The notes beneath the pieces were generated by a model that was not told the DNA's origin, did no database searches, and was given only the letters and a program-made list of their open reading frames with translations. From positions 1 to 44,163 of the forward strand of contig DATMWY010000247.1 of the NCBI GenBank assembly GCA_035562415.1: a DNA stretch of 44,163 nucleotides. The letters run 5' to 3'. The stretch is from Candidatus Deferrimicrobium sp. GTDB lineage: Bacteria > Zixibacteria > MSB-5A5 > GN15 > FEB-12. Each line of letters starts with the position of its first letter. The stretch's first letter is position 1. The translations under genes and the position numbers were made by a program. Positions 7,504 to 43,142 of this stretch are shown here, one piece after another.

Positions 7504-7556
7504 GGGGATGCGGGCCGCAGGAAATCGGGTAAACGCGAAGCGTGTAGGAAAAGCCC

Positions 7557-13234: not shown

Positions 13235-13249
13235 TCGAAGGAACGAGCT

Positions 13250-15076
13250 ATGTGTGGTATTGTAGGCTACGTTGGCAGTAGAAAGGCGCTGCCCATTCTG
13301 ATGAGCGGCCTGAAGCGGCTGGAATACCGCGGCTATGACTCGGCGGGTATTGCACTTTTGGCCGACGACGGCCTCATGGTGGCGAAAACGGCCGGCAAGA
13401 TCGGACGATTGGAGGAATTGCTCGGCGACAACGATTACGATTGCTCGCATGGCATTGCCCACACGCGTTGGGCGACCCACGGTGAACCCACTCAGCTCAA
13501 CGCCCACCCCCATACCGACGAAAAGGGTGAAATCGCATTGGTCCACAACGGCATCATCGAAAACTATCGCACGCTCAGGGAGTTTCTGACCCGGCAAGGC
13601 TACACAATTCGCACGGAAACCGACACTGAAATTCTCGTGCATCTGATTCGATTTCATTATCGCGGCTCGCTGACCGAGGCGGTGCGCGCGGCGTTGATCG
13701 AGGTGGAAGGAACATATGGTATTGCCGTCATATCATCGATGCATCCCGGCGTTCTAGTGGCCGCGCGGATGGGATCGCCGCTGGTAGTCGGTGACGGGGA
13801 TGGAGAAAATTTCATTGCCTCGGACGTGTCGGCCATGCTCGAACATACCAACCGGGTCGTCTACCTCGAGGACGGCGAAATCGCCACCGTTACGGCACAC
13901 GAATACAACATCACCACGATTCAGAACGTGCGGATCACCCCTCAAATCGAGGAAGTCTCCTGGACGCTCGATATGATCGAAAAAGAGGGATACGAGCATT
14001 TCATGCTCAAAGAAATCCACGAGCAGCCGACGACGCTGCGCAACGCCTTTCGCGGCCGACTGAATTGGGAGGAGGGCATTCCCCGGCTGGGCGGATTGAA
14101 CCTCCAGTACGACGCTTTGCGGGAAATCAAACGCGTCATTATTACCGCTTGCGGTACCTCCTGGCATTCGAGCCTGATCGGCGAATATATCATCGAGGAA
14201 CTGGCGCGGGTGCCCGTGGAAGTGGAGTACGCTTCGGAGTTTCGCTATCGCTCGCCGATATTTGATCCGCACACGATTTTTCTGGCCGTCAGTCAGTCCG
14301 GAGAAACAGCGGACACATTGGCCGCGATGCGGGAAGCCAAGAAACGCGGCGTCACGACGCTCGGCGTGGTCAACGTCGTCGGTTCGTCGGTCGCCCGGGA
14401 GTCGGACGGCGGCGTGTATATTCACGCCGGGCCGGAGATCGGCGTGGCCTCGACCAAAGCCTTCACCTCACAGGTGATGGTGCTGTCTCTCATAGCCACG
14501 CTCCTGGCGCGGATGCGCACCCTGTCGGTCCAGCAGGGGCAGGAGATTATGGACTGCATCCAGAAAATTCCCGATCAGGTCCAGTCTATTCTGGAGGCCG
14601 GCGATCAGATCAGACAGATCGCCGAGGCATATTACCGGGCCAACAATTTCCTCTACCTCGCCCGCGGGATTAATTTCCCGGTGGCGCTGGAAGGAGCGCT
14701 CAAGCTCAAGGAAATCTCCTACATTCATGCCGAAGGGTACCCGGCCGCTGAAATGAAGCATGGCCCGATCGCTCTCATCGATGAAAACATGCCGGTCGTC
14801 GTCATTGCGCTCAAGGATCCGGTGTATGACAAGGTGATGTCGAACATTGCCGAAGTGCGAGCGCGCAACGGCCGCGTCATCGCCATCGCTACCGAGGAGG
14901 ACACCGAAATCGCCGACCGCGTTAATCACGTCATTTACATTCCGCCGACCTTTCGTCTGCTGACCCCGCTGCTGTCGGTTATCCCCTTACAGCTGCTCGC
15001 TTACCATATAGCGGTGCTGCGCAATTGCCCGGTCGATCAGCCGCGCAACCTGGCCAAATCAGTGACGGTGGAATAA
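13250..15076 (+). CDS. glmS: glutamine--fructose-6-phosphate aminotransferase
   Basis: N-terminal MCGIVGY nucleophile, two SIS domains and the typical C-terminal AKSVTVE. Confidence 0.95.
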   Translation: MCGIVGYVGSRKALPILMSGLKRLEYRGYDSAGIALLADDGLMVAKTAGKIGRLEELLGDNDYDCSHGIAHTRWATHGEPTQLNAHPHTDEKGEIALVHNGIIENYRTLREFLTRQGYTIRTETDTEILVHLIRFHYRGSLTEAVRAALIEVEGTYGIAVISSMHPGVLVAARMGSPLVVGDGDGENFIASDVSAMLEHTNRVVYLEDGEIATVTAHEYNITTIQNVRITPQIEEVSWTLDMIEKEGYEHFMLKEIHEQPTTLRNAFRGRLNWEEGIPRLGGLNLQYDALREIKRVIITACGTSWHSSLIGEYIIEELARVPVEVEYASEFRYRSPIFDPHTIFLAVSQSGETADTLAAMREAKKRGVTTLGVVNVVGSSVARESDGGVYIHAGPEIGVASTKAFTSQVMVLSLIATLLARMRTLSVQQGQEIMDCIQKIPDQVQSILEAGDQIRQIAEAYYRANNFLYLARGINFPVALEGALKLKEISYIHAEGYPAAEMKHGPIALIDENMPVVVIALKDPVYDKVMSNIAEVRARNGRVIAIATEEDTEIADRVNHVIYIPPTFRLLTPLLSVIPLQLLAYHIAVLRNCPVDQPRNLAKSVTVE

Positions 15077-17574: not shown

Positions 17575-18813
17575 TCACGTACTTTCCGGATCAGGTTCGA
17601 TCTTCGCCTTGGCCGTGACGACCGCGTGCTCCTTGGTCGCCGCAAATTTTCTCAGCCGCTCGAGCTGCTCTTTGTTCAGTCGCTGCTTCTGGATGATTTC
17701 TTTCATCAGGCCTCGGCCGTCAAGCACAAAGTACTCATTCAAACCAAATTCGCGAGCCAGTTTAGACAGTTCGGCAAATGCGCGTGCGTCGTCCGATTTG
17801 GTCACGAACTCTTCCTTGCGACTCACTGTCACCTGCACCCGGCCGCCGGCTCCTTCGAGCCTCGTGACATTCATCTCCTTGGCCAGCGCGATAATCTCCG
17901 TCCTCAGCGCCGTTCGTTCGGCGTCGGCCAGCTTACTGTTCTGGTCAATTTCAAGGAACCTAGTCGCCAGGGCATACGCTCTCTCAGCCGGTGACCCGGT
18001 GGCCTCAGCCGAACCAGCCCGCTGCGCGTCAATCATCAGCTTGTGCCTTTTGGCCGGACAGAGGGTAAAAAAGTCGCAGTAGCTGCAGTGGCGCCCCTCA
18101 ATCGTGGGAAAACTATCCAGCCGCTGCGCTTCAATCGTCTCAAGGACCGCCCCTCGCAGATTCTCCTGCAGCTCGTCAAGCTCGTCGGGCCGCAGCTGAT
18201 GTCGCACGATCTCGTCCATGCGGAGATAGTACTGCGCCAACTCGATCGTTTTCCACTGTGGGTAATTCTGCGCCACCGCCAGTTGGTACAATCCCATCTG
18301 ATACCTGAAATCCTCGTCGGTCGGCCTGGCCAGATTACGGCCCGTCTTGTAGTCGCAGATCTCAACGACGCCGTCCTCGCGTTTCCACAAGCGATCAACG
18401 ATGGCCAGAAATCGATATTGCGTTCCGTCGAGGGTAAAAGTGAGGCGCAGCTCGGTTCCGAGAAGTGTCCCCTGAGTAAATGGCTGATACCGCTCGTAGT
18501 GCTTTGAAAGCAGCCTCTCGCCGAGACGAATGAAGTCATCCACGGTGTGATATTCATCGGTGAGGCTGATGTGCTGTTGCCGGGCGCTTTCCCACTGTGC
18601 GCGATAGAAAGAGAGCATCTCCGGCTGCGGCAGAAGGACTCCGTCGGAGCCAAGTTCATAGAGGCGGGCCAGCGTGCGGTGGATAACATTGCCGAGAAAC
18701 GTATCGGCGGTTACTTTGCGCGGAACATCCACCTTTTCCACGTAGCGAAACTTGAACTGCCGCGGGCAGGTGCGGAAGGAATCGAGCGAGCTGTAGCTGT
18801 AACGAGAGAGCAT
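17575..18813 (-). CDS. PD-(D/E)XK nuclease family protein (RecB/AddB/Cas4-type fold) with a C-terminal extension
   Basis: N-terminal YSYSSLDSFRTCPRQFKFRYV. Nuclease core DRL...EICDYKTG. Cys cluster CSYCDFFTLCP, which with the N-terminal Cys is typical of the Fe-S cluster-bearing members. The last ~150 aa are charged/helical with no motif. Confidence 0.75.
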   Translation of the reverse strand: MLSRYSYSSLDSFRTCPRQFKFRYVEKVDVPRKVTADTFLGNVIHRTLARLYELGSDGVLLPQPEMLSFYRAQWESARQQHISLTDEYHTVDDFIRLGERLLSKHYERYQPFTQGTLLGTELRLTFTLDGTQYRFLAIVDRLWKREDGVVEICDYKTGRNLARPTDEDFRYQMGLYQLAVAQNYPQWKTIELAQYYLRMDEIVRHQLRPDELDELQENLRGAVLETIEAQRLDSFPTIEGRHCSYCDFFTLCPAKRHKLMIDAQRAGSAEATGSPAERAYALATRFLEIDQNSKLADAERTALRTEIIALAKEMNVTRLEGAGGRVQVTVSRKEEFVTKSDDARAFAELSKLAREFGLNEYFVLDGRGLMKEIIQKQRLNKEQLERLRKFAATKEHAVVTAKAKIEPDPEST

Positions 18814-18875
18814 AGGAGTAACCTCAGGAGGACCCTATATAACGGTTTCGGAATACCGACGTAAGACCGGAATTA

Positions 18876-19910
18876 TCACGGCCCGCCGCGTCGAGCCTTG
18901 TTCGTAACTTTCTCATACAATCCCAGCAAAAAACCGACTCCCAGACCAAAATGAATGGTCGGAAAGATGATCGGCCCGTACCGAAGACACGCACCATGCT
19001 TTCGCTTCAGAGCGAGGAACACCGAATATAATGCCACCACCCACAAGTACGCCACCGTCGCCGCTCCGAAAATAGCTGCCGTTCGCACAGAAAAAGGCGC
19101 CATGACAAGCAGGACGGCAAAGCCCATAACCCCGGCGGCAGCCAGCCATTGCACCAGGGCCACCTGACGGTGCTTCATCGCAAACTGGAAACGCCCCCGG
19201 CCATAGCGCATCATCTGACGCCACAGCCCGCGAAACGTCGCTCGCGGATAGTACAGGACTTTCAGGCGCGGTGACAAAAACGACCGAAGTCCGGCCTTTC
19301 TGATGCGAAAATTGAAATCGACATCCTCGCAGGCGTCATACTGTTCATCAAAGTAACCAATCTCGTCGAAAAGTGATCTGGCATACATGGCCCCGGAAGA
19401 GGTCGGGTCGACTTCCCCTTCGAAGTCGGAATAAATCTCCGACCCCGGCTTGTGGCCGAGCGCCGATCCGCGACAAAGCGACACCGCCTTTTGGAAAGGA
19501 TTGATGTCGGGAGGCGTCAACGGCTGCGGTCGACAGAGGCAGGCAGCACCGGTCGTCTTGAAAAACTGGATAATGTCACGCAGCAAATGCTTGCTCGGAA
19601 TAAATGTGTGCCCATCCATCACCACCACGTACGGCGCAGTGGAATTCTTGACGCCCACATTTCGTCCCGACGAGGGCCGCCGAACCGGGTTATCGAGTAC
19701 CTTAAGCGATCCGAAACGGCTTTTGAACGATTCGGCGATTTCCCGCGTCCGGTCGGTCGAGCCCCCGTCGGCAATAACAATCTCCACTTTGTCCGCCGGA
19801 AACTCCTGGTGATAAATCTGCTCGAGCGTTTGCCCGATAAATTTTTCTTCGTTCAGCACGGGCATGATAACGGCAATGTCGTATCTCGCTTCGGCAGCTG
19901 TCATAAGCAT
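18876..19910 (-). CDS. family 2 glycosyltransferase with C-terminal TM helices
   Basis: IAVIMPVLNEEKFI, DGGSTDRT and the VVMDGH (DxD-like) pattern. The C-terminus is hydrophobic. Confidence 0.8.
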   Translation of the reverse strand: MLMTAAEARYDIAVIMPVLNEEKFIGQTLEQIYHQEFPADKVEIVIADGGSTDRTREIAESFKSRFGSLKVLDNPVRRPSSGRNVGVKNSTAPYVVVMDGHTFIPSKHLLRDIIQFFKTTGAACLCRPQPLTPPDINPFQKAVSLCRGSALGHKPGSEIYSDFEGEVDPTSSGAMYARSLFDEIGYFDEQYDACEDVDFNFRIRKAGLRSFLSPRLKVLYYPRATFRGLWRQMMRYGRGRFQFAMKHRQVALVQWLAAAGVMGFAVLLVMAPFSVRTAAIFGAATVAYLWVVALYSVFLALKRKHGACLRYGPIIFPTIHFGLGVGFLLGLYEKVTNKARRGGP

Positions 19911-20057
19911 ATTTCCTGTGCCAATTTATCGCTTCACGGGCCTAAGGCAACTGAGGAATGCGGCCGGCGGGACGGCTTGAGAAAATGCCTCATAAAGACG
20001 CGACGCGACAAGGCAATCGCGGGTTAGATGGCCATCAAAGCCAATTCTCGAGGCTGT

Positions 20058-21104
20058 TTATTCATGCCCCAAGCGGCGGCCAGTAGCCCGATCGAAATAA
20101 AGCAGATCTTCAGAGGCAAAAGTGAAATTCACGTGCGCACCAGGCTCAAAAGCAGCAGGACAGTTTGAGACTGTCAACGTAAGCTTCTCAAATGAAAGAG
20201 TCATCACATACTGCCCTCCGACATATTCGGATGACACGATCGTGCCGGTGTGCCGCCCATTCGGTAAAAGCTCAATCCGCTCCGGCCGCAGCCCCACTAT
20301 GATTTTTCCGGAGAATCGCATGTTGTCTGCCACCGGCTGCCCGAATGGCTGTAACCTGCCGCCGTCTATGACAGCCTCAATGACGTTGATTTGAGGCTGG
20401 CCGATGAATCTGGCTACAAACAGATTGGCTGGCTGATGATACAACTTCTGTGGCGTACCGAGCTGGGCGATCCGGCCCTGATGCAACAGCGCTATCCGGT
20501 CACCCATCGTCAGCGCTTCCGATTGATCGTGCGTCACGTGTATGGTAGTAATGCGCAACTGCTTTTGAAGCGAAACGATTTCGCGGCGCATGCGCGTCCG
20601 CAAGTCGGCATCAAGATTCGAGAGGGGTTCATCGAATAGAAATACCGACGGCTGGCGGATCAGCGCCCGTCCGAGCGCCACGCGCTGGCGCTCACCGCCA
20701 GAAAGCTGCGCCGGGCGGGAGGGTAACTTATCGGACAGGCCGAGGAGCTCGGCCACTTCCCGGACACGCCGCTTGATTTCGGAGCTACTTATTTCAGCTA
20801 TGGTCAGGGGAAACGAAAGATTTTTCTCAACCGTCATGTGCGGATAGAGGGCATAATTCTGAAAGACCAGACCAACGCCTCTCTCCTTCGGCCGCAGCTT
20901 GTCGATGCGTCTCTGGCCAATGAATATCTCGCCGCTGTCAGGCTCCTCCAAGCCGGCAATGAGTCGCAGGAGTGTCGACTTGCCGCAGCCGGACGGCCCA
21001 AGCAGGACGAGGAGTTCACCCTCTGCCAGCTCGACAGAAATATCCCTCAGCACGTCGTTGTCCCCGAACCGTTTCGAAATGTTTTTTAGGACCAAACCGG
21101 TCAT
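20058..21104 (-). CDS. ABC transporter ATP-binding protein, MalK/UgpC-type (no permease or binding protein in the window)
   Basis: Walker A GPSGCGKST, signature LSGGERQRVALGRAL and Walker B FLFDEPLSNLD. The C-terminal regulatory/TOBE-like domain gives a length of ~348 aa. Confidence 0.9.
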   Translation of the reverse strand: MTGLVLKNISKRFGDNDVLRDISVELAEGELLVLLGPSGCGKSTLLRLIAGLEEPDSGEIFIGQRRIDKLRPKERGVGLVFQNYALYPHMTVEKNLSFPLTIAEISSSEIKRRVREVAELLGLSDKLPSRPAQLSGGERQRVALGRALIRQPSVFLFDEPLSNLDADLRTRMRREIVSLQKQLRITTIHVTHDQSEALTMGDRIALLHQGRIAQLGTPQKLYHQPANLFVARFIGQPQINVIEAVIDGGRLQPFGQPVADNMRFSGKIIVGLRPERIELLPNGRHTGTIVSSEYVGGQYVMTLSFEKLTLTVSNCPAAFEPGAHVNFTFASEDLLYFDRATGRRLGHE

Positions 21105-21332
21105 CTAATTCACTTTCCTGATAATCCCCGGCCAGATATTGAGACTTCTTCCCGATTCTCGCAACAATAGAACAGGCTCAACCGCGGTGGTGACAAGTAC
21201 CTGTGCGAGATGGCCTAATGAGCCCCTGAGAGGCAAGCATCGATTTTCGTTCAGTTCGCCCAAAACTTGGTCCATAAGCTCTGCAGGCCACAAAAAATGG
21301 CAGATGTTGTCACCTGCCATATTCGTCTGCAC
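21105..21332 (-). CDS. hypothetical 75-aa protein (weak call)
   Basis: It fills the dnaN-ABC gap. Its TAG stop abuts the ATG of the ABC ATPase (TAGATG). No motif and no clear SD. Confidence 0.3.
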   Translation of the reverse strand: MQTNMAGDNICHFLWPAELMDQVLGELNENRCLPLRGSLGHLAQVLVTTAVEPVLLLRESGRSLNIWPGIIRKVN

Positions 21333-22738: not shown

Positions 22739-24154
22739 TTAATATAAGAGCATCGCGGAAAGACGGTCAATTTTCTCCCTGAAGTTGGCGTCGGAGGCAA
22801 TACGCCTCGTAATCAGGTCACAGGCATGAATCACCGTCGAGTGATCGCGGCCCCCAAAGGCGGCGCCGATGACCTTAAGTGAACTGTCCGTCAGAGAACG
22901 ACTGAGGTACATAGCTACCTGGCGGGCTAAGGCGATGTCGGACGTTTTCTTCTTGGCTGTCATCATCTGTGGATCCACGTGAAAAAATTCAGATGCTTTT
23001 TTCTTGATAAGCTCAAGCGAAATATCCCGCCTCTGAGAGGGGATATTATCTTTCAGCACTTGGCGGGCCAATTCTACATCAAGCGCGACCTGCTTCAGCG
23101 AGGCATAAGCAAGAACTCGAATCAACGCCCCTTCGAGCTCACGGATATTGGTTGATACGATGTCCGCGATGCAGCGTACCACCGTCTCCGGTAACGCCGT
23201 CCCCTCGGACTCGAGCTTTTTGTGCAGGATTGCCATTCGATTTTCGAGGTCCGGGGCTTGCAAATCGGTCACCAGTCCCCACGAGAAGCGTGAAAGCAGC
23301 CGCGCCTCGAGGCCCTTTATTTCCTTGGGTGAACGGTCCGAGGTGAGAACGATTTGTTTGCCGAGATGGTGCAGCGTATTAAAGGTGTGAAAAAACTGTT
23401 CCTGAGTCGACTCCTTGCCGGTCAAAAACTGAATGTCATCAATCATAAGGACATCGACATCCCGGTACACGCGCGTGAAGTCAGAAACCGTCCGATCCGT
23501 TATGGCGGCAATAAAGTCCGACGTGAACTTCTCGGAGGTCGCATAGATCACCTTCTTCGATGGGAACGCCGATAGAATGCTGTTGCCGATAGCTTGCACA
23601 ATGTGGGTCTTGCCCAAGCCGGTGCCGCCATAAATGTAAAGGGGATTGTAGTTAGTGAGCCCGGGCGCCTCGGCCACGGCCATAGCGGCAGCACAGGCAA
23701 ACTGATTAAAATCACCGACCACGAGAGAGTCGAAATCGTAACGTCGATTGAGATTGCATCGTTCCCGCTTGGGCCGATCGTTCTCGACCTGGCCGTGGTG
23801 ACCATTGTTGCCGGAGAGATCAAGTGCGCTCTGTTCAGGCAGACTTTCATCGTTCAATGGTATGTATACCAGTTCGTACCGGTGTCCGAGGACTTGTTCA
23901 AAAGCCTCTTCGATAAGTCCGTGAAAATGTCCGCGGATCCACTCGGCTACGAACTGATTCGGTACCGCCAGCCGAAACTCCCCATTACCGTTAGGCTCTC
24001 CTTTGGATGTTTTGAACCAGGTATGGAAGGACTGTTCCGAAAGGCGGCGAGAAATGTACTGCAGACAGTCTCTCCATTCCTGAGAATTCTTGATGCTTTC
24101 TGTGGCAATCACGTTTCCACCCCTGAATATCTGTAAGTTTTTTTGGTCGACCAT
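22739..24154 (-). CDS. dnaA: chromosomal replication initiator protein DnaA
   Basis: Walker A GGTGLGKTH, MIDDIQFL, and the C-terminal DNA-binding signature GGRDHSTVIHAC. Confidence 0.95.
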   Translation of the reverse strand: MVDQKNLQIFRGGNVIATESIKNSQEWRDCLQYISRRLSEQSFHTWFKTSKGEPNGNGEFRLAVPNQFVAEWIRGHFHGLIEEAFEQVLGHRYELVYIPLNDESLPEQSALDLSGNNGHHGQVENDRPKRERCNLNRRYDFDSLVVGDFNQFACAAAMAVAEAPGLTNYNPLYIYGGTGLGKTHIVQAIGNSILSAFPSKKVIYATSEKFTSDFIAAITDRTVSDFTRVYRDVDVLMIDDIQFLTGKESTQEQFFHTFNTLHHLGKQIVLTSDRSPKEIKGLEARLLSRFSWGLVTDLQAPDLENRMAILHKKLESEGTALPETVVRCIADIVSTNIRELEGALIRVLAYASLKQVALDVELARQVLKDNIPSQRRDISLELIKKKASEFFHVDPQMMTAKKKTSDIALARQVAMYLSRSLTDSSLKVIGAAFGGRDHSTVIHACDLITRRIASDANFREKIDRLSAMLLY

Positions 24155-34883: not shown

Positions 34884-35121
34884 GAAGCTAACCTCCGTCT
34901 AATGTTTGCCGAGTTATTAATTGCTGCGTAACGGCTTTCTCCAATTCTCCATGGGGGTCAATTACATCATGCCATGTATGTTACTTCCTTTCAGTTATCA
35001 TACCATAGCTGGGCCCAGGCCGGGCGGAGGCGGTTGGCTTGCCGTTGGTCCCACACCCGGCCCGTCAGTGGTCACGCCTGAAACCAGGAAACGGTCGTTC
35101 TGTTTGCACGATAGAATTACA

Positions 35122-35138
35122 GGCAACTAGCGTGCCAA
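35122..35138 (-). promoter_or_regulatory. sigma-54 (-24/-12) promoter
   Basis: The minus strand reads tTGGCACgctagTTGCc. This fits TGGCAC-N5-TTGC with GG and GC correctly spaced. It faces the 34766-32807 operon. Confidence 0.7.
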
Positions 35139-35246
35139 TTTGACGGATGCGAGCGACCGAATTGCCTAACCGACTGAATGACAATCGAATGCGATGCGAT
35201 AAAAGACGTGAGAAGGCAATGATTTATCTTCGCAGTGCGTTGATCA

Positions 35247-35352
35247 TTACGAGCTGTTTTACGAGGAGAATGTGATCTACAATCCTAAGTGGCAAAGACT
35301 CAATGAGATCGCTGGCGTTTGCGGGTTACGAATGAATTCGTAAAATTCGTAA
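35247..35352 (-). promoter_or_regulatory. putative enhancer (UAS): five TTACGA(A/G) half-sites including an 18-bp palindrome
   Basis: TTACGAG at 35247 and 35259 (12-nt spacing). TTACGAAT-ga-ATTCGTAA at 35326-35343, plus an extra ATTCGTAA at 35345-35352. These lie 110-215 bp upstream of the -24 element and are duplicated collinearly at 42106-42211. Confidence 0.55.
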
Positions 35353-35408
35353 TGGAGCCTGATCGATTGAGAGGTTTAAACAATGAGTGGAAGACGACCG
35401 GTCGCCTA

Positions 35409-37538
35409 CTACAGCCCCAGCTTGCGCCGGCGATGACGAACCGTCCCCTCGCTCACACCCAGCAACTCCGCCGCTCTGCTTTGATTCCCCCCTGATCGCA
35501 CTATTGCTGCTTCCAAGTCCTCCCGCTGGCGCTCTTGCTCCTGCTCGCGGGCACGCTGCAAAATTTTCACCGAGTCCTGCCCCGCCTCTGTCCACAAGCG
35601 CTGCACCAGCGCCTGCAACTGCCGTACATTCCCCGGCCAACTCCACTGCGACAGCAGCTCGCCTAACTCAGAAATAGCCGTCTCATTTCCGCCTGTCAGA
35701 TCAAACCCGGCAAACGTCAAGAAATGCCGCACCAACGCCGGAATATCTTCTCTGCGCGCATCTAATGGCGACAACACGATCGGAATCTGGTTCAACCGAT
35801 GATACAAATCGAGCCGCAGCCGTCCGATGCGCAACAGCTCCTGGACATCAGTACTGCTGGCTGCGATCAATCTGAAATTGACCGCCCGCCGCTCATTCTC
35901 TCCCAGTCGCCGGACACACCGTGTTTCCAGGACTTCCAAAAGCTTCGCCTGCACTGCCGATGACGCCTCCGCCACTTCATTGAGAAACAACGTTCCCTCC
36001 GCGGCTTCGGCGATCAGCCCCGGACGATCCTCACTGCCGGTAAACGCCCCTTTCGTGCATCCAAAGAGCTCCGCCTCGGCCAGTGCATCGGGGATCGTCG
36101 CCATGTTCACGATCACCAGTTTGCCGGTACGTCCGCTGCAATAATGGACATATCGAGCAAATAAATCTTTGCCGGTGCCCGTCGCCCCCGACAAAAGCAC
36201 GGTCATTTCCGACGGCGCGATGTTTTCGACCAGGGCCACGATCTTCTTCATCGCCGGACTCACCGCCACCACGACCGGGCGCGCCGCGTCGGCTGTCTTC
36301 GTTTTTGCGGGAGGCAGGACGTGCACGCGAAGTTGGGCATCGATCTTGTCCACGTAGTGCGTGACATCCTCCGCGGCAAAATACTCCCGCGCCAGATACA
36401 GCATAGCCGTTCGCTCGGTTTCAGCGTGCAGCCCTGACGTGGCCGCGAGATAGCGCGTCACCGCCAGCTCGTAGCGCGAGCCGACGAGGTTGAACATGTC
36501 CATCGCCTTCCCGTACCACTGGCGCGCTTTGTCCGCGTCACCCCGATGAGCTTCCACCTGCGCAAAAACACGATGACAGGCCGCGATCTCGACTCGCTCG
36601 TTGATCTTCTCGGCGACCACCAGCGCCTCGGAGGCGAATTGCTCAGCCAGTTGAAACTTGTTCGTGGCGACATAGAGGTCCCCAAACAGCCGTTTGATCT
36701 GCGATACGAGAGCCGACTCCGGCGCGATCTTGATAGAAATCTCTAACCCGGCTTTGAGCGCCTTCTCGGCGGCGGGGTAGTCTCTGTCCAGGATGCAAAT
36801 CAGGCCGAGATTTTCGTAGTAGATCGCTTTCTCTCTGATGTACTTATCGAGATACGGCCGGCACTTGGCGATCGTCTTTCTGGCCGTGGCGATATCGCCT
36901 TTGTAGGCCAGAGGGAGAGGAAACATCTCGGTGTAAATGAGGACATTCTTTTCACCGGTAGATTCAATCCGCTCGGCAATATCAGCGTATACGATCCGTG
37001 ATTCGCGAATGGCCCCCGTCATAAAAAGCAAATAGGCGAGGTTACTTGATGCAACAGTCGCACCGTGATCGTAATGTAACTGACAGTATATGTCGATGCA
37101 CTTCCGGAGGTTGGAAATGGACGACTCAAGGTGTCCCAATATCAACAACACATACGATAACTGATTAAGGGCGCGGGCAGAACCTTTCAAATCCCGGCAT
37201 CTCAAAAAGTTCACGTGAGCCTCAAGTAAGACCTCCTGTGCCTCTGCGTGCCTGCTCAGTGCCGAGAGAAGCCATCCTTTGAGGAACTTCGCCCAAGCAA
37301 ATATGTCCGTTCGTTCGCTACCCCGAAACTTCTCGATCACTTCATCGATAAGATTGCCAACGGAATAGTCACCCAGATACAAGGACGCTTCTGCAGTCAG
37401 AAGAGAATGATGCCCTATTTCTGCCGCACCGAGGCCGGCGACATCAATGTTCTTCAGTTCGTTAAGAGCGTCACAATAGCGCTTATTGCGAACCAATTCC
37501 TCGATTGCTTGTAGGCTCTTCACGGTCTGGTTTGTCAT
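35409..37538 (-). CDS. sigma-54-dependent transcriptional activator with a ~400-aa N-terminal TPR-like domain
   Basis: Walker A GATGTGKD, sigma-54 contact loop GAFTGS, R-finger region LRLDLYHRL, and a C-terminal Fis-type HTH (GNQSRAAELLGVSEGTVRHRRRKLG). The N-terminus is made of TPR-like helical repeats, and there is no receiver domain. Confidence 0.9.
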   Translation of the reverse strand: MTNQTVKSLQAIEELVRNKRYCDALNELKNIDVAGLGAAEIGHHSLLTAEASLYLGDYSVGNLIDEVIEKFRGSERTDIFAWAKFLKGWLLSALSRHAEAQEVLLEAHVNFLRCRDLKGSARALNQLSYVLLILGHLESSISNLRKCIDIYCQLHYDHGATVASSNLAYLLFMTGAIRESRIVYADIAERIESTGEKNVLIYTEMFPLPLAYKGDIATARKTIAKCRPYLDKYIREKAIYYENLGLICILDRDYPAAEKALKAGLEISIKIAPESALVSQIKRLFGDLYVATNKFQLAEQFASEALVVAEKINERVEIAACHRVFAQVEAHRGDADKARQWYGKAMDMFNLVGSRYELAVTRYLAATSGLHAETERTAMLYLAREYFAAEDVTHYVDKIDAQLRVHVLPPAKTKTADAARPVVVAVSPAMKKIVALVENIAPSEMTVLLSGATGTGKDLFARYVHYCSGRTGKLVIVNMATIPDALAEAELFGCTKGAFTGSEDRPGLIAEAAEGTLFLNEVAEASSAVQAKLLEVLETRCVRRLGENERRAVNFRLIAASSTDVQELLRIGRLRLDLYHRLNQIPIVLSPLDARREDIPALVRHFLTFAGFDLTGGNETAISELGELLSQWSWPGNVRQLQALVQRLWTEAGQDSVKILQRAREQEQERQREDLEAAIVRSGGNQSRAAELLGVSEGTVRHRRRKLGL

Positions 37539-37812
37539 TTTCTACGGTCGCTTGCTTTTCATTCAAAAACTTGATCACGATGAAATAGTACGAGCCGAGT
37601 TCAAGGTAATAGTTCCAATTACTGAAGGACCACTGGCTGTCTGCGTAGATCTTGTGATCAGGTACTCCCCATCCCCCGTCATCCCCTTCACGTGCTCTGT
37701 CACTGCCAATGATTCGCGGCCAGCCGGGCCAGGAGGAGCGAGCGGAGAGAGGCGGCGAAAGGACGGTGAATAGAAACAGCCCCAGCAATGATAGCGCTGT
37801 TAACCTCTTCAT
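37483..37812 (-). CDS. hypothetical small secreted protein
   Basis: Signal peptide MKRLTALSLLGLFLFTVLSPPLSARS with a Trp/Tyr-rich mature part. Its 3' end overlaps the EBP start by 56 nt, which lowers confidence. Confidence 0.4.
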   Translation of the reverse strand: MKRLTALSLLGLFLFTVLSPPLSARSSWPGWPRIIGSDRAREGDDGGWGVPDHKIYADSQWSFSNWNYYLELGSYYFIVIKFLNEKQATVENDKPDREEPTSNRGIGSQ

Positions 37813-38069
37813 GTGATTCTCACCTTGCTTTCAAGAGCTTTTCCTGCGGTCCGGGCGTAATGCCCAAACCAGTCTCCTCCTCATTTGTCGGTAAAAAGAT
37901 ACACGACCCCCAACATGCTGTCAAGGGAAAAATTGACGCCGCGGCTGCTAATTTTCGCGTCGGTAGGCGCCGACCGTACCATCCGCCGGCGACGGCGTCA
38001 GTGCCAAAATACGGCACTCACTGGCGCGGTGCCACAGGGCTCGCCCGCGGCACCCCGCTTCCGGTTCGC

Positions 38070-38324
38070 TTACACGTACCGCTCAACGAAAAACGAGATG
38101 GTTCCGGCCACAAGCCCGGCGAGCAACATGAAAAGCAGCAGGCGTCCCACACGCCGTTTCTCTGGCGGAGCTAAGGTATAGCCGGCGGACAGCGTCATGA
38201 GACAGCCGCCAACAAACCAGCCCAGGACCGAAAAGGCTCCGCCGGCCTTGCCGATCGCTTCCGCCACGAACACCGCGATCAGCACGCCGAGGAAATGCAG
38301 CAGGTAATTGCGTGTTTCACTCAT
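38070..38324 (-). CDS. hypothetical 84-aa three-helix membrane protein
   Basis: Three hydrophobic helices and no motif. It is GC-rich, unlike the adjacent ABC/rSAM genes. Confidence 0.4.
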   Translation of the reverse strand: MSETRNYLLHFLGVLIAVFVAEAIGKAGGAFSVLGWFVGGCLMTLSAGYTLAPPEKRRVGRLLLFMLLAGLVAGTISFFVERYV

Positions 38325-38485: not shown

Positions 38486-39244
38486 TCAGTAGTCACCGTT
38501 TTTACTGACGTACAGAGAGATGCCTAATGACGCAAGCGCCATGAGTATGAGAATAAGCATATCAAACGAGAAGAAGTTCGATGCACTCACTAGGTACGCT
38601 TGTCGGGCGCTGTTGCAGGTGTAAGTCAGCGGATTAATCGTGCTAATGGCTTGAATCCAGGAGGGGGCTTTCGAAATGTCATAATACATAGTACTGGAGA
38701 ACGTAAGCGGCATCGAAACCAACATAACCAAAATCTCACGAAGGTCATCCCGTTTCATCATCAGGCCAATAGCTAATCCAAGTGAAAGCCAGACGATCGT
38801 GCCAAGAAGTACTGTAACGCCGAGGACAAGCGCATTGGCGACATGTGCTACTGCCACCTCTCCTTGGGAAATGATAAGGGCTAGCATTATCAGGATAATC
38901 ACTTTGACCATGTTGACGACTGATTGAGCGACAATTTTCCCGCCAACGTACTCTTTCAGTCCGCCATGCGAGAGAACGATAATACCGAGCATACCTGACA
39001 TTTTGTCGTGACGTACGAATGTTAACGCTATCTGAAATGTCATAAAGGTTACAAAACCTACAAGACCTGGCGTGAAGTAATCCAAGTAATTGACGGACAT
39101 CCCCTCGTACGAAAAAGCTGACAGATTCCTTCCGAAAACGGTGGCAAAGAACACCAGCAGGAAAAGCGGGGCGACGAAATGAAGTACCACGCTCAAACCT
39201 GATGTAATGACCGTTTTGAACTCACGCCAAATAATGGTCTTCAT
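38486..39244 (-). CDS. ABC-2 type transporter permease
   Basis: 252 aa with six hydrophobic helices in the ABC-2 layout. ATGA start/stop overlap with the upstream ATPase gene. Confidence 0.8.
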   Translation of the reverse strand: MKTIIWREFKTVITSGLSVVLHFVAPLFLLVFFATVFGRNLSAFSYEGMSVNYLDYFTPGLVGFVTFMTFQIALTFVRHDKMSGMLGIIVLSHGGLKEYVGGKIVAQSVVNMVKVIILIMLALIISQGEVAVAHVANALVLGVTVLLGTIVWLSLGLAIGLMMKRDDLREILVMLVSMPLTFSSTMYYDISKAPSWIQAISTINPLTYTCNSARQAYLVSASNFFSFDMLILILMALASLGISLYVSKNGDY

Positions 39245-40161
39245 TTTGGTCTCGTTCCATATCTATCAAAAAGATCTGTGAGTGAGGTTTTTGTTTCACT
39301 CATGCTTGTGATCCCGAATTTCTTACGTAGCGCTTCAAGAAAACAGAGAACGTCACGGGTGTACTCTGCGAATTCAAGAGTGATAACGGTGTCGCTTCCC
39401 TGAACAACCTTAATGTTGTCCGCTGACAGGTTTTCTGAGAACCGGCAGTGACGGGATAGGTTGACCGTAAGTTTTACTTTGATTTCGCCGGATAGATTGT
39501 CTTTTTTGCCCACGTATAAAAGTTCCCCGTCCCTTATGAAACCGACCCGGCCACAGGTTCTTTCCACTTCAGTTACGTCGTTTGACGCCAGCAGGATTGT
39601 GCACGTGTTATCAGAAACGTACTCCTTTATGGCCTGCCACATTGCCAGCTTTCCTTGGATGTCAATCCCTAAGCTCGGCTCATCGAGCAAGATGTACTTT
39701 GGTTTGCCCAAAAAAGTTCTCGCCAGTTGAGCCCGGCGGAATTGCCCACCCGACAATGCCAATACCCCTTTCTTTCGAAAATCACCGAGCCCGAATATTT
39801 CGACTGCCTTTTCAATCTCGAACTCACTCATCCTGGCCGGAACTTTTCTCAATTTACAATAGAAACGCAGATTGTCTTCAACGTTGAGCAATAGGTCGAG
39901 AGCATGACCCTGCGGCATTTCGGCCAGAGACCTACGTATGCCAGCCAGGTCCGTGTTTATCTCTTTGCCGTCAAAGAATATTCGTCCGTGCGTTGGTTTC
40001 AGCAAAGTCGAGCAAATGCGCAGCGTAGTGGTCTTGCCCGCTCCATTTGGACCGAGCAGCCCAAACACCGTTCCCTTGGCAATGGACAGCGTCACTCCCC
40101 TCAGTGCCTCAAAGGAACCATACTTCTTCGACACGTCTTGAAGAACAATAGCATCTGCCAT
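39241..40161 (-). CDS. ABC transporter ATP-binding protein (DrrA/ABC-2 partner type)
   Basis: Walker A GPNGAGKTT, signature LSGGQFRRAQLA and Walker B ILLDEPSLGID. TGATG overlap with the rSAM stop codon. Confidence 0.9.
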   Translation of the reverse strand: MADAIVLQDVSKKYGSFEALRGVTLSIAKGTVFGLLGPNGAGKTTTLRICSTLLKPTHGRIFFDGKEINTDLAGIRRSLAEMPQGHALDLLLNVEDNLRFYCKLRKVPARMSEFEIEKAVEIFGLGDFRKKGVLALSGGQFRRAQLARTFLGKPKYILLDEPSLGIDIQGKLAMWQAIKEYVSDNTCTILLASNDVTEVERTCGRVGFIRDGELLYVGKKDNLSGEIKVKLTVNLSRHCRFSENLSADNIKVVQGSDTVITLEFAEYTRDVLCFLEALRKKFGITSMSETKTSLTDLFDRYGTRPK

Positions 40162-41579
40162 CAGCGTAACCTTACATTATGGTTGCTCTTCGGGCACAGG
40201 GGGTGGATGCCCCACGCTGATCCATACACTTTATAGACATCTCTGACGCACCATCCCATCTCATGAACGCATTTTACGTAGTGCTCGCATTCATAGCAGG
40301 CTCTACCTAAGAAATACGATTTTTCAGGGTAAAGCAACGACTTCACCTTATCAGATTGCCAAACATCGTTCAGTGTAGTTTTCGACAGATCACCCAACAG
40401 GAAGGGCTCTTTGCTCGGCAACTGTTCGCATGGGATAACTTTTCCCGACGGTGTTATCACTAACCCCATTCTTCCAAACGCACATCTGGCTCTTGAAAGG
40501 AACTTGGCAAACTTCTCTTGGTTTGTGAGATTACCACTATCTAATCTTGGTGTCGCGACGATCGCATTGTGCTTGTTGATCTTGTCAATTTGATCGTTTA
40601 GCCAGGCGATGTCGGAATCGTCGACAAAAAGTGAGTCACAGTGTCGATACGTACTTCTATAATACCGACTCAGCACGATGTTTTCTATAACCGCAGAAAC
40701 CAAATATTTCACGAGTTCTGGGATATCCATTACGTTATATTTCGTTACCACGCTGTTTGTTGAAACCGTGATGCCAGCGAGTTGTAGGTTTCCAATCGTG
40801 TGAATTGCTTCAGCTACATACCCTTTCCTCCCAACCAGCATCTCCGTCGATTCTGGTTTGAGTGAATCTATGCTTACCTGCATTCGCAACACCCCGGAAT
40901 CTGCCAGCCGAAAACACATGTTGGGAGTCAGGTATTCCTTTGTCGACAATATAAGGATGATATCCTTGCTATTAATATATTCGATGAGGTCAAAGACCCA
41001 TCTCCTGGTAAAAGGATCACCGCCTCCCAAATACATGACTTGCACCTTGGAGTCGCACGCCTGATCTACAATTGCTTTCGCGAAGGCCAGACCCATTTCT
41101 GACAAGTCTTCCCTAGAATCCCGGTTTGCGTAGCAATACAAACAGTGAGAGCTGCATCTATAAGTCAACAACAGTACAAGTGATAACGGCGTCTTTAACC
41201 TGAAATGTGACATGTCGACTGATGACTTCGGCATTATGAAATCATAAGGTTGGTATTTGTCGTTTATCATGCCTTCGACAAGAAAGTCTTTGACCTCTCG
41301 AAGGTAGTTCATCATGAACGCCTCGGCCTGTTCCCGAGAAACCCGTGTCACACTTGAAAGAAGGCTTATTATTTCATCCATACGACGACTTCCGTTGAAC
41401 AAGCTTAGTATTATAGCATGAAGCGGATGGAGGAGGCTTTGGTTGATGACATCTCCTGTGACAGCATCTATTTTGTAGCAAAGAATATTGCTTTCTGCCG
41501 CTCGCAATCTCAAATCAGGGTTGAAGCACAACATTGAGATACTCTTATAGGCGGGGGCATCATATGAAGCCCCCGCCAT
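40161..41579 (-). CDS. radical SAM / SPASM-domain peptide-modifying enzyme with an N-terminal RRE (PqqD-like) region
   Basis: CSSHCLYC, a CxxxCxxC cluster motif at ~aa 142-149. C-terminal Cys-rich twitch/SPASM pattern (CAFGRMGLVITPSGKVIPC ... CYECEHYVKCVHEMGWC ... HPLCP). The first ~110 aa (LHAIILSLFNGSRRMDEIISLLSSVTRVSREQAEAFMMNYLREVKDFLVEG) look like a PqqD/RRE winged helix. Confidence 0.85.
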   Translation of the reverse strand: MAGASYDAPAYKSISMLCFNPDLRLRAAESNILCYKIDAVTGDVINQSLLHPLHAIILSLFNGSRRMDEIISLLSSVTRVSREQAEAFMMNYLREVKDFLVEGMINDKYQPYDFIMPKSSVDMSHFRLKTPLSLVLLLTYRCSSHCLYCYANRDSREDLSEMGLAFAKAIVDQACDSKVQVMYLGGGDPFTRRWVFDLIEYINSKDIILILSTKEYLTPNMCFRLADSGVLRMQVSIDSLKPESTEMLVGRKGYVAEAIHTIGNLQLAGITVSTNSVVTKYNVMDIPELVKYLVSAVIENIVLSRYYRSTYRHCDSLFVDDSDIAWLNDQIDKINKHNAIVATPRLDSGNLTNQEKFAKFLSRARCAFGRMGLVITPSGKVIPCEQLPSKEPFLLGDLSKTTLNDVWQSDKVKSLLYPEKSYFLGRACYECEHYVKCVHEMGWCVRDVYKVYGSAWGIHPLCPKSNHNVRLR

Positions 41580-41582
41580 CGA

Positions 41583-41711
41583 TCACTGGAGCATGAATCC
41601 AATGATGCAACTGGCACACATCAGGCCACAAATGAACCCTGCGGAAAGAGTCCCTTCCCCAGGAAGTGTTCCTTGAGCCAGCCCCTGGCTCAATGGCTCA
41701 AGCAGGCCATT
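41583..41711 (-). CDS. candidate precursor peptide, 42 aa (not in the ORF track)
   Basis: Hand translation gives MACFEPLSQGLAQGTLPGEGTLSAGFICGLMCASCIIGFMLQ. Its stop lies 3 nt before the rSAM ATG. It has no SD of its own and its start lies inside the 16-codon ORF 41698-41748. Confidence 0.45.
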   Translation of the reverse strand, partial: NGLLEPLSQGLAQGTLPGEGTLSAGFICGLMCASCIIGFMLQ

Positions 41712-41748
41712 GAGGTCCAGGGTGCTTCTTAGATCGTGCGCTAACATA
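41698..41748 (-). CDS. 16-codon upstream ORF carrying the strong SD, possibly the true N-terminus of the precursor via a +1 shift
   Basis: GGTGAGGTGA-ttt-ATG gives MLAHDLRSTLDLNGLL-stop, with the terminal context CTT TGA G. Confidence 0.3.
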   Translation of the reverse strand, partial: YVSARSKKHPGPQWPA

Positions 41749-41980
41749 AATCACCTCACCTGTTTAGGGATTATCAGTATCAGCTTAGCCGTAAGTTTCT
41801 TGACGGCAACGTCTTTTTCAAAGCTTCATGTGTTCATTGGTCTAACCTCCTTTCGTTTTTTTCCCTTAGGCCGGGCCCGGTTTTCTGATCGACCCGACGG
41901 CAAAAGCTTTTCTCCACACCCGGCCGGGGTCACGCCTCAAACGAAGAGACGGTTGTTCTGTTAGCACGACAGAACGTAGG

Positions 41981-41997
41981 GCAATCGGTGTGCCGGA
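41981..41997 (-). promoter_or_regulatory. sigma-54 (-24/-12) promoter of the peptide/rSAM/ABC operon
   Basis: The minus strand reads cGGCACaccgaTTGCc, with GG and GC elements at the canonical spacing. It is homologous in position to the promoter at 35122-35138. Confidence 0.65.
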
Positions 41998-42105
41998 TTA
42001 GAGCAAACGTGCGATAAAATCACATAACTGATTGATTGACAATCGAATGTGTTGCGAGGAATACCTAGAGTATCCGAGGCTCGTTCAGGAGAAGCGCCGG
42101 ATTAT

Positions 42106-42211
42106 TACGAGCGGCTTTACGAGGAGAATATGATCCACTATTCTAAGTGGCGGAGAGTCAATGAAATCGTCGTCGTTTGCGAATTACGAATGAATCCGTA
42201 ATATTCGTAAT
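42106..42211 (-). promoter_or_regulatory. putative enhancer (UAS), paralogue of 35247-35352
   Basis: TTACGAG at 42106 and 42118. TTACGAAT-ga-ATcCGTAA at 42185-42202, plus ATTCGTAA at 42204-42211. Distances to the -24 element are identical to those in the other copy (110 nt, and ~200 nt to the palindrome centre). Confidence 0.55.
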
Positions 42212-42319
42212 GGCGTCCGATTGATTCCAAGTCCAATTGTGAAGGGAAAGTGATCCGTCCCCGTCTGTAACTCCAATTTTGGGCCGACACCGGTATCCCG
42301 TACCCGCATCCGATTTTAC

Positions 42320-42844
42320 CTACTCCGATTCGTATGAGATAAGGTAACTGACATCGTACCCGGCCAGCTTTTCGCGCCAGGGTAAGAAGGACAGATCGAT
42401 CACGGCAGAGATACCTGCCACCGTGCCTCCCAGCCGTTCAATTAGACGACAAACAGCCTCCAGTGTTCCACCGGTGGCAATCAGATCATCCACGACCACT
42501 GTTCGCTCTCCCTTGTGAACGGCGTCTTCATGAAGCACGATACTATCGCTGCCGTATTCGAGGTCATACTGCTGAGCGACCGTTTTGTAGGGCAGTTTTC
42601 CCGGCTTGCGGGCCACGGCAACCCCAATGCCCAGGCGATCTGCCAGCGCCGCCCCAAAAATGAACCCGCGCGCCTCGACGGCAACGATTTTTTGAGGCTG
42701 TTTGGAGCGGACAAATCGCTCCATACCGTCGACCGCGAGACGAAAACCGGCGGGATCCTGTAGAAGTGTAGTTATATCGTAAAAGTTGATCCCCGGTTTG
42801 GGAAAGTCCGGAACCGTTCGGATGTATCTCTTCAATTCATTCAT
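42320..42844 (-). CDS. apt: adenine phosphoribosyltransferase
   Basis: MNELKRYIRTVPDFPKPGINFYDITTLL and PRPP loop VVVDDLIATGGTLEA. ATG 42844 is used instead of the longer track ORF, which would overlap acyP. Confidence 0.9.
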   Translation of the reverse strand: MNELKRYIRTVPDFPKPGINFYDITTLLQDPAGFRLAVDGMERFVRSKQPQKIVAVEARGFIFGAALADRLGIGVAVARKPGKLPYKTVAQQYDLEYGSDSIVLHEDAVHKGERTVVVDDLIATGGTLEAVCRLIERLGGTVAGISAVIDLSFLPWREKLAGYDVSYLISYESE

Positions 42845-42863
42845 CTGTTTTCGCCGCAACCCG

Positions 42864-43142
42864 TCAGAAGGAAACGTCAAACCTCGTGTAGCGTCCCGTG
42901 AAGGCCGTCCAGGTGACCACAATGTCGGTGACTTGCGCATGTGAGGGACCGACTTTCAACTGCCCGATAAGTTCTTCCAGCAGACCGCGATCTCCTTCGG
43001 CCATCACCGCCACGGTGCCATCTCTGTTGTTCTTGACCCAGCCGGTTACACCAAGCTCCGTTGCCTGTCGATAACACCAGTAGCGATAACCGACTCCCTG
43101 AACCATTCCCCGGATAGTAAGCTGGACGCCCGCGGCGCTCAC
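42864..43142 (-). CDS. acyP: acylphosphatase
   Basis: 92 aa with (I/V)xGxVQGVGYR and GWVKNNRDGTV signatures. Confidence 0.85.
   Translation of the reverse strand: MSAAGVQLTIRGMVQGVGYRYWCYRQATELGVTGWVKNNRDGTVAVMAEGDRGLLEELIGQLKVGPSHAQVTDIVVTWTAFTGRYTRFDVSF

Follow-up and report, generated by a model that had tools for sequence, protein, structure and literature searches.

The 44,163 nucleotides (nt) of contig DATMWY010000247.1 from a Candidatus Deferrimicrobium sp. assembly (GCA_035562415.1), referred to here in full as the window, contain a duplicated segment of about 320 nt whose two copies lie on either side of a gene for a putative sigma-54 activator of the enhancer-binding protein type. 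Each copy belongs to a module, A or B, that is read on the minus strand and consists of a distal cluster of half-sites, a proximal pair, a conserved block near -60, a sigma-54-type promoter and a predicted leader; positions in the modules are counted from the first G of GGCAC. The activator gene, the small gene that overlaps its start and the parts of the two modules upstream of the leaders are the following.

37896-37924, minus strand: sigma-70-like promoter TTGACA-17-TATCTT, recognised from sequence, ahead of the exported-protein gene
37483-37812, minus strand: small exported protein of 109 residues with a signal peptide; its gene overlaps the activator start by 56 nt
35409-37538, minus strand: enhancer-binding protein (the activator) of 709 residues, with about 400 residues of tetratricopeptide repeats (TPR), a sigma-54 AAA+ domain, an AAA lid and an HTH_8 domain (..LLGVSEGTVRHRRRK..)
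35326-35352, minus strand: module A distal cluster, TTACGAA (35346-35352), TTACGAA (35337-35343) and TTCGTAA (35326-35332)
35247-35265, minus strand: module A proximal pair CTCGTAA-N5-CTCGTAA (35247-35253 and 35259-35265)
35163-35196, minus strand: module A conserved block CATCGCATTCGATTGTCATTCAGTCGGTTAGG, from sequence and orthologs
35123-35137, minus strand: module A sigma-54-type promoter TGGCAC-GCTAG-TTGC, TGGCACGCTAGTTGC, an exact match with a predicted start near 35112
42184-42210, minus strand: module B distal cluster, TTACGAA (42204-42210), TTACGGA (42195-42201) and TTCGTAA (42184-42190)
42105-42123, minus strand: module B proximal pair CTCGTAA-N5-CTCGTAA (42105-42111 and 42117-42123), 12 nt start to start
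42021-42054, minus strand: module B conserved block CAACACATTCGATTGTCAATCAATCAGTTATG, containing AATCAATCAGTTA, from sequence and orthologs
41981-41995, minus strand: module B sigma-54-type promoter CGGCAC-ACCGA-TTGC, CGGCACACCGATTGC, with one mismatch and a predicted start near 41970

The two copies (35051-35370 and 41909-42228) are 69.1% identical without gaps at a fixed offset of 6858 nt; when the 320-mer was placed along either strand of the whole window (mean 24.9%, standard deviation 2.4%, z = 18), the runner-up placement reached 36%. A repeat search returned two blocks with the same offset, 35061-35199 at 71% and 35242-35368 at 83% identity. The copies are free of indels over about 308 nt, and the sole indel (MAFFT), of 5 nt, lies further into the leader, at GTGACC[ACTGA]CGGGCCGGG. 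Identity is distributed unevenly, being 80-90% at the repeat clusters, the CATTCGATTGTCA block and part of the leader, 50-53% near the promoter spacer and about 40% (saturated) at 35205-35235. Because the spacers have fallen to about 40% while the motif blocks have stayed at 80-90%, the duplication is evidently old and the retained blocks are, by the same measure, under selection. A possible remnant of the end of the activator gene, lying ahead of copy B, was also considered and set aside as unconvincing (about 48% identity).

Within the modules, the distal half-sites are found at -216, -207 and -196 (forward, forward, reverse) and the proximal direct pair at -129 and -117, the distal cluster of module A starting 57 nt past the activator stop codon. 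The last two distal half-sites form the 18-base-pair (bp) palindrome TTACGAATGAATTCGTAA (35326-35343, and 42184-42201 with one mismatch), beside which lies the third half-site (35346-35352 or 42204-42210). Nine of the 14 YTCGTAA heptamers in the window fall within the two modules, and the sequence CGCAAA 3' of the distal cluster is a candidate degenerate sixth site, with which the layout would possibly be 4+2. The block CATCGCATTCGATTG occurs at 35182-35196 and 42040-42054; its form common to both copies is CAYCRCATTC..TTG..CAATCAGTT, and across orthologs it reads CAYCRCATTC..TTG..CAAYCAGTT from -60. The consensus of integration host factor (IHF), WATCAANNNNTTR, is fitted by AATCAATCAGTTA in copy B, so that the module B block is a candidate architectural-protein site; copy A and most orthologs do not fit it, and with copy B as the only good match a consistent IHF site between enhancer and promoter is doubtful. 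An earlier note on this DNA had described the two segments as aligning along their whole length, with no net indel and with equal distances between motifs, and both descriptions hold. Every motif that it listed was located where it had been placed, including the conserved stretch 3' of -12; its repeats TTACGAG, TTACGAAT-ga-ATTCGTAA and TGACAATCGAATG do exist, the label being at fault, since they had been assigned to the minus strand though quoted from the plus strand.

The activator contains the Sigma54_activat domain (PF00158, E = 4.4e-51) with the Walker motif GATGTGKD and a GAFTGS loop, an AAA lid and a C-terminal helix-turn-helix of the Fis type (HTH_8, E = 1.4e-7). Its best matches in the PDB are NifA, ZraR, NtrC1 and FleQ over residues ~410-710, and its TPR part has given generic TPR matches only (LGN/Pins, kinesin light chain, OGT). 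The protein is below every NCBIfam equivalog cut-off, the best being RtcR with 222 bits against a cut-off of 650. Full-length homologs are up to 60% identical and come mostly from metagenome-assembled genomes (MAGs) labelled Zixibacteria, FCB group or Ignavibacteriales, and the TPR domain forms a small separate family of 71 clusters (50% identity, E <= 1e-30), whose members are mostly ~710 residues long. The literature yielded no paper dealing with TPR-type sigma-54 activators or with sigma-54 in Zixibacteria. Neighbourhoods were fetched for eleven activator homologs, and the small exported protein has proved to be a conserved partner of the activator in 10 loci; in every locus examined, a gene for about 110 residues overlaps the activator start by ~56 nt (L001 9724-10056, L003 9715-10050, L004 1565-1897, L005 9727-10059, L095 7280-7612). 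Conservation of this protein is confined to the signal peptide and a PDPxKPLPW-x5-PNGDEGGWxDP segment, it matches no Pfam or NCBIfam family, and it may be a partner of, or a signal for, the activator.

Six genomes carry the module: the window, L001, L005, L015, L095 and L096. L002 and L009 are further fetches of the L001 locus, and L100, from another assembly, is near-identical to the L096 module; L015 was obtained by a metagenome scan with the activator alignment, the other matches there being generic enhancer-binding proteins that share RxDLYHRLN. The module follows the stop codon of the activator ortholog within 40-60 nt in L001, L005, L015, L095, L096 and L100. The same ordered architecture is shared by 10 modules from the six genomes, with half-site positions that agree within a few nt and YGGCA(C/T)-N5-TTG(C/A) at the same place in all 10 (GG, CA and TTG invariant), and the invariant columns of their alignment (A5) coincide with the half-sites, the -60 block and the promoter. 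In L005 (12403-12416 and 16014-16027) the promoter reads TGGCAC-N5-TTGA, GA replacing the near-invariant GC at -12. Two modules, separated by a few kb and preceding different small genes, occur in each of L001, L005 and L095, and therefore the two-promoter arrangement recurs in this activator family. The L001 copies are 98% identical and the second retains the last ~30 nt of the activator gene, a pair that is, judged by these features, a recent segmental duplication; the copies of the window (~70%) and of L005 (58%) are in each case mutual closest relatives and much older than the L001 pair, and those of L095 come from two distinct module lineages.

Half-site sequences differ among these loci together with the recognition helix of the activator. 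TTACGAA sites (CTCGTAA in the proximal pair) are found with the helix SEG[TS][VI]R[HY]R in the window, L001, L095 and module 2 of L005; TGCGAC sites in the same 2+dyad+2 layout accompany SDTAVRRR in L096 and L100; and L015, with the helix TEGAVRKQ, has six direct TTCGTAC repeats of 21-nt period that fill -209 to -104. A half-site sequence that tracks the recognition helix is thus supported by the comparison. In place of the 3+2 layout, the L015 repeats (7538-7663), of the form (A)TTCGTACCA, keep an exact period of 21 nt, or two helical turns, and six such sites on the same face fit the expectation for a hexameric activator. No other DNA-binding regulator is conserved in the orthologous neighbourhoods. 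Two side observations concern the same loci. The spacer between the distal and proximal clusters includes a stretch conserved across genomes (CACTTAGGA / CCCTTAGGAA; window 35280-35300 and 42138-42158 on the minus strand, L001 ~12250) that the half-site model leaves unaccounted for and that may be a further protein-binding site. In L003 (12568-14900) and L097 (10755-11273), the place of the module is taken by genes of IS21 insertion-sequence type (IstA/IstB) or by transposase-like genes, those of L003 being IS21.

Outside these loci the module is rare. The composite pattern TTCGTAA-N45-75-CTCGTAAA-N4-CTCGTAA was searched in one genome per species from 185,579 species, a collection that does not include the source genome of the window, and gave two true matches. 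Both are in the L001 MAG, adjoin the activator and are followed after 110 nt by GGCAC-N5-TTGC. Seven further matches lack the promoter; six are coding-like chance occurrences and one (L008) belongs to an unrelated non-coding GCTCGTAAATTT tandem array. Viral contigs yielded no true match to the pattern, only unrelated chance ones. A core profile run with nhmmer over all fetched DNA (well over 0.5 Mb) found the known modules and a single exception, a weak match downstream of a second TPR-activator paralog in L001, with its own palindrome and CGGCAC-N5-TTGC. Since the composite pattern is rare and promoter-associated, the module is not a dispersed repeat; a dispersed repeat or mobile element has been rejected with two copies in the window and two true copies in 185,579 genomes, both adjoining the activator. 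The exception in L001 has further features: after the paralog gene (18908-21166), the stretch 18200-18930 on the minus strand contains the palindrome GGCGGTAAGCGTTT..AAGCGTTTGCCGCC, a CAATCTGTT block, CGGCACAGCCGTTGC and, about 80-130 nt into the transcript, a terminator-like hairpin followed by T8, which could represent attenuation or a short RNA.

From this comparative evidence, it is probable (at roughly 80%) that each copy works as a sigma-54 enhancer-promoter cassette controlled by the activator encoded next to it. DNA binding, dependence on sigma-54, DNA looping and any function of the leader are inferred, and the proposed course of events is conditional throughout. The activator would be made from its own sigma-70-type promoter along with its small exported partner, and its TPR domain of ~400 residues would be the signal input. 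Its Fis-type helix-turn-helix would bind the TTACGAA-type half-sites, three distal and two as proximal direct repeats, and the bound activator would assemble into an ATPase-active hexamer, which six sites would nucleate. The DNA would then loop, probably helped by a factor on the -60 block, and the hexamer would contact RNA polymerase-sigma-54 at YGGCAC-N5-TTGC and open the promoter. Copy B would direct transcription of a precursor peptide, a radical SAM/SPASM maturase and an ATP-binding cassette (ABC) exporter, and copy A that of an orphan membrane protein. Part of this had been anticipated by the earlier note, which saw sigma-54 promoters in both copies and proposed that the only sigma-54 activator in the window, lying between them, binds the TTACGA repeats and co-activates both operons. 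Both promoter motifs are present, and they recur at the same place in the 10 modules of the six genomes; a GAFTG-type sigma-54 activator loop occurs in just one ORF (open reading frame) of the window, which does lie between the copies; and the co-activation proposal is now supported by the comparison across genomes. As a result that would count against its reading, the note had named a repeat that is widespread away from promoters, and in the 185,579 genomes both true matches are promoter-associated. Its "two-operon regulon" is a lower bound when taken from the window alone, and one of the two proposed operons, that behind copy A, may consist of just one orphan gene; neither the leader nor the -60 block is explained by its model.

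Several observations weigh against this reading. The -24/-12 match is by itself not above chance: at one mismatch or fewer, TGGCAC-N5-TTGC occurs in the window at these two sites only, against 3.35 expected, and the assignment is supported by position and conservation, not by motif count. Copy B and most orthologs carry CGGCAC instead of TGGCAC, both L005 modules have TTGA rather than TTGC at -12, and no ORF with an RpoN box was found in the window or the fetched loci. Close orthologs of the activator without an adjoining module exist in L003, L004, L006 and L099. The link between helix and half-site comprises three specificity classes only, with L096 and L100 not independent, and module 1 of L005 has mixed half-sites (TTGCGAC, TTACGTA). 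Finally, a search of 5.8 billion proteins gave no homolog of the protein encoded downstream of copy A, which also matches no family.

It has to be considered whether the sigma-54 promoters are real but the repeats are bound by a different protein, such as a repressor, a nucleoid protein or another activator, in which case the neighbouring activator would work from other sites or on other promoters. The 127-nt enhancer region is 83% identical between the copies, including the inter-site stretch CACTTAGGA, which exceeds what five heptamers require and therefore suggests that additional factors probably bind. The -60 block, moreover, is unchanged whatever the half-site type, and therefore at least one other factor appears to read the module, presumably an architectural protein or RNA polymerase rather than the activator. 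As to the repeats themselves, however, the module adjoins the activator gene in six genomes, the half-sites change together with the recognition helix, which is consistent with the activator as their reader, their number and geometry fit a hexamer (six in L015 and L096, the 18-bp dyad in the window), and the neighbourhoods conserve no competing DNA-binding regulator. A different binder is thus unlikely, and recognition by the activator is preferred.

The segment extends past the promoters into a predicted leader, which has the following features.

34984-35112, minus strand: module A leader, with GGCGTGACC and hairpin arms GGGCCGGG (35056-35063) and CCCGGCC (35018-35024)
34984-34992, minus strand: module A Shine-Dalgarno-like element GAAAGGAAG, then a 2-codon mini-ORF at 34967-34975 (M-A-stop)
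41846-41970, minus strand: module B leader, with a 5' hairpin UUCUGU..ACAGAA, GGCGTGACC, a GC-rich hairpin and an A-rich linker
41919-41925 and 41869-41875, minus strand: module B GC-rich hairpin arms GGCCGGG and CCCGGCC
41846-41854, minus strand: module B Shine-Dalgarno-like element GAAAGGAGG, then a 3-codon mini-ORF at 41826-41837 (M-N-T-stop)

All modules share a GAGCGTG-like element ~45-55 nt after TTGC and a GC-rich inverted repeat CUGCCGGGU..ACCCGGCAG (GGCCGGG/CCCGGCC in the window), and in all 10 an A-rich linker is followed by GA(A/G)AGGAGG. This last element lies at +126 to +135 from TTGC or, in the long form of L001 and L005, which results from an insertion of ~175 nt, at +301 to +308. 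In the window the Shine-Dalgarno-like elements are near-perfect anti-16S sequences, with 80-220 nt between them and the first long ORF. In 5 of the 10 modules GA(A/G)AGGAGG is followed, at ideal spacing, by an ATG that opens an ORF of 2-18 codons; these ORFs are not conserved, and a conserved leader mini-ORF has been rejected on this count, its length and sequence varying as well. A globally structured leader is not supported either: four of the five leaders gain no stability over their shuffled versions (z = +0.7 to -0.6; L015, -3.0), and a single hairpin is consistent among them, with weak covariation. At the gathering threshold Rfam gives a tRNA only, and E-value scans of both leaders gave chance matches of E > 2. 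The leader would most likely act after transcription, our best guess from its sequence being mRNA stability or ribosome loading of the STAB-SD type.

The same data bear on the possibility that the main selected function of the duplicated segment is the transcribed leader, as a cis-regulatory RNA or mRNA stabiliser, with the upstream repeats secondary. The leader is indeed conserved where the half-site type differs (L005, L015, L096), GA(A/G)AGGAGG keeps its two fixed distances, and the 11-bp hairpin formed by the inverted repeat is in register, 88.8% of cells pairing against at most 53% after a one-column slide. On the other side, the covariation term of RNAalifold is 0, both sides change in only three pairs, stability exceeds that of shuffles in one leader of five, Rfam gives no match and a mini-ORF follows in only half of the modules. 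We consider it quite unlikely that the leader is the main target of selection, and a role for it adds to the enhancer-promoter function of the module and does not conflict with it.

Two further explanations deny the segment a regulatory role in DNA or assign it a coding one. The copies might be left over, without function, from a segmental duplication or from some mobile or dispersed repeat, and the second copy in L001, 97-98% identical and including the last ~30 nt of the activator gene, makes it clear that duplication through simple copying does occur. In the window, however, the spacers have diverged to saturation with the motif blocks kept, the architecture persists across genomes although the modules are only 41-57% identical overall, a related reference genome has two copies only and viral contigs have none, and terminal inverted repeats and a transposase are both absent, all of which makes a neutral origin very improbable. 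A small plus-strand protein (..YEENxI..KWxRxNEI..NS*) encoded by the 83% stretch (35242-35343), suggested by a frame of ~33 codons that is open in both copies with similar-looking translations, has a negligible chance of being real and was rejected, because mismatches of 8/5/4 over codon positions 1/2/3 have no third-position bias and therefore give no sign of coding selection, stop codons break the frame in L001 and L005, and 'YE..YE' and 'NS*' are by-products of the TTACGAG repeats 12 nt apart and of AATTCGTAA.

The genes that the two cassettes would serve (cargo A and cargo B) and their immediate neighbours are these.

42320-42940, minus strand: adenine phosphoribosyltransferase, upstream of copy B
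41583-41747, minus strand: candidate precursor of a ribosomally synthesised and post-translationally modified peptide (RiPP), 54 residues, Cys-rich, core GFICGLMCASCIIGFMLQ, with its own ribosome-binding site; first gene 3' of module B
40161-41579, minus strand: radical SAM/SPASM maturase with an N-terminal extension of ~125 residues (PF04055, E = 2e-19; PF13186, E = 7e-9)
39241-40161, minus strand: ABC ATPase (ABC_tran)
38486-39244, minus strand: ABC-2 permease (ABC2_membrane)
38070-38324, minus strand: membrane ORF of 84 residues
34200-34766, minus strand: cargo A ORF of 188 residues with one N-terminal membrane helix, supported by codon score
34007-34036, minus strand: terminator-like hairpin after cargo A

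Cargo B fits a radical SAM/SPASM RiPP cluster, with a maturase, a short Cys-rich precursor and an exporter. The maturase reaches no named family at cut-off (best PqqE, 92 bits against 381), and no family match was obtained for the 54-residue precursor. The GC content of cargo B (~45-48% against 54% for the window) and its atypical codon usage, with weak adaptation, suggest that it has been acquired. For cargo A, the codon score is frame-specific and comparable to that of the radical SAM gene. Cargo differs between genomes: that of the window has no counterpart downstream of the orthologous modules, and that of the other genomes consists of small signal-peptide proteins, the conserved unit across loci being the small exported protein, the activator and the module. 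Elsewhere in the window, dnaA, glmM and glmS are present (22739-24154, minus strand; 11876-15076, plus strand), and the window belongs to the chromosome, with the replication origin probably close by; at 7557-10721 (plus strand) a ROCO protein of 1054 residues combines an array of leucine-rich repeats, a Roc GTPase and COR-A/COR-B, its leucine-rich repeats being encoded by nine tandem DNA repeats of 69 nt (7617-8468).

A duplicated enhancer-promoter beside its activator is an expected route of small-regulon growth, and the loci compared here provide a testable regulon and DNA-recognition code for uncharacterised TPR-sensor sigma-54 activators of uncultured FCB-group bacteria, in which sigma-54 control would be tied to a radical-SAM peptide cluster. 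The three pairs of half-site and helix could serve as natural orthogonal activator/enhancer pairs. A wider proposal, which we regard as speculative and on balance doubtful, is that the TPR activator, its exported partner and the enhancer, promoter and leader form a portable cassette, in which the TPR domain senses a peptide or protein cue and the module is copied ahead of foreign cargo, with half-sites that insulate paralogs and a leader that is a new stabilising or ribosome-loading motif. If so, the source of the cue could be either the exported partner or the cargo, much as in quorum sensing; the cargo would comprise RiPP clusters, small secreted Cys-rich proteins and orphan genes, compositionally foreign; paralogs would be insulated by half-sites re-tuned as TTACGAA, TGCGAC and TTCGTAC; and the leader hairpin and Shine-Dalgarno-like element would make foreign cargo expressible. 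Of potentially greater interest are the signal read by the TPR domain, the -60 block, the leader and what looks like repeated use of the module before foreign cargo.

Some features of the locus resemble known systems. Cargo B is similar to radical SAM/SPASM RiPP clusters of the sactipeptide/ranthipeptide type (AlbA, StsB) in its small Cys-rich precursor, in its maturase with a CxxxCxxC radical SAM core, a SPASM domain and an N-terminal extension of ~125 residues, and in its ABC-2 exporter, and differs from them in that it reaches no named family and its precursor has no family match. No radical SAM/SPASM RiPP cluster described as being under the control of a sigma-54 activator was found in the literature. 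The leader is reminiscent of the STAB-SD of Bacillus thuringiensis cry3A, with a 9-nt complement of the 16S 3' end within a long leader, far upstream of the first long ORF, and with no usable start codon after the Shine-Dalgarno-like element in half of the modules. The STAB-SD sequence of Agaisse and Lereclus is reportedly GAAAGGAGG, the same nonamer. Unlike it, the element described here occurs in MAGs of the FCB group and not in Firmicutes, follows a GC-rich hairpin, is followed by a mini-ORF of 2-18 codons in 5 of 10 modules and is known from sequence only. The cry3A element is taken here as it appears in the reference list of a later article (Agaisse and Lereclus, 1996, ref. 106 in PMC3997798).

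The pairing of the activator with its partner has a functional, and only functional, likeness to the RRNPP group: a cytoplasmic TPR-sensor regulator is encoded beside, and here overlapping, the gene of a small exported protein, and the targets include secreted or peptide products. In RRNPP systems, TPR-type peptide receptors have an adjacent pro-peptide gene (PlcR/PapR, NprR/NprX, Rap/Phr). The output here would be a sigma-54 AAA+ activator and not a sigma-70 helix-turn-helix activator or a phosphatase, the TPR similarity is generic, a peptide import system is not linked to the locus, and the 109-residue protein is known as a predicted product.

The closest comparison is with the enhancer-dependent sigma-54 promoters of the NtrC/NifA/XylR type, of which glnAp2, nifH and Pu are examples. 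Such activators are also said to be the subject of a treatment by Bush and Dixon from 2012. In common with these systems, the activator combines an AAA+ domain with a GAFTGA-type loop and a C-terminal Fis-type helix-turn-helix, several dyad or repeat sites precede a GG-N10-GC promoter by 100-220 bp, the stretch between enhancer and promoter has a conserved element where IHF usually binds, and the activator gene adjoins its presumed targets. Reviews of enhancer-dependent sigma-54 systems are available (PMC7057263, PMC7175178). The locus differs from them in its input, an array of about 400 residues of TPR and not a receiver, GAF, PAS or V4R domain, in a fixed 3+2 (possibly 4+2) half-site layout with a block that fits the IHF consensus inconsistently, and in a promoter followed by a conserved leader of 130 nt or, in the long form, ~300 nt. 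The mechanism proposed for it is textbook enhancer-dependent transcription, attached here to an undescribed family of TPR-sensor activators.

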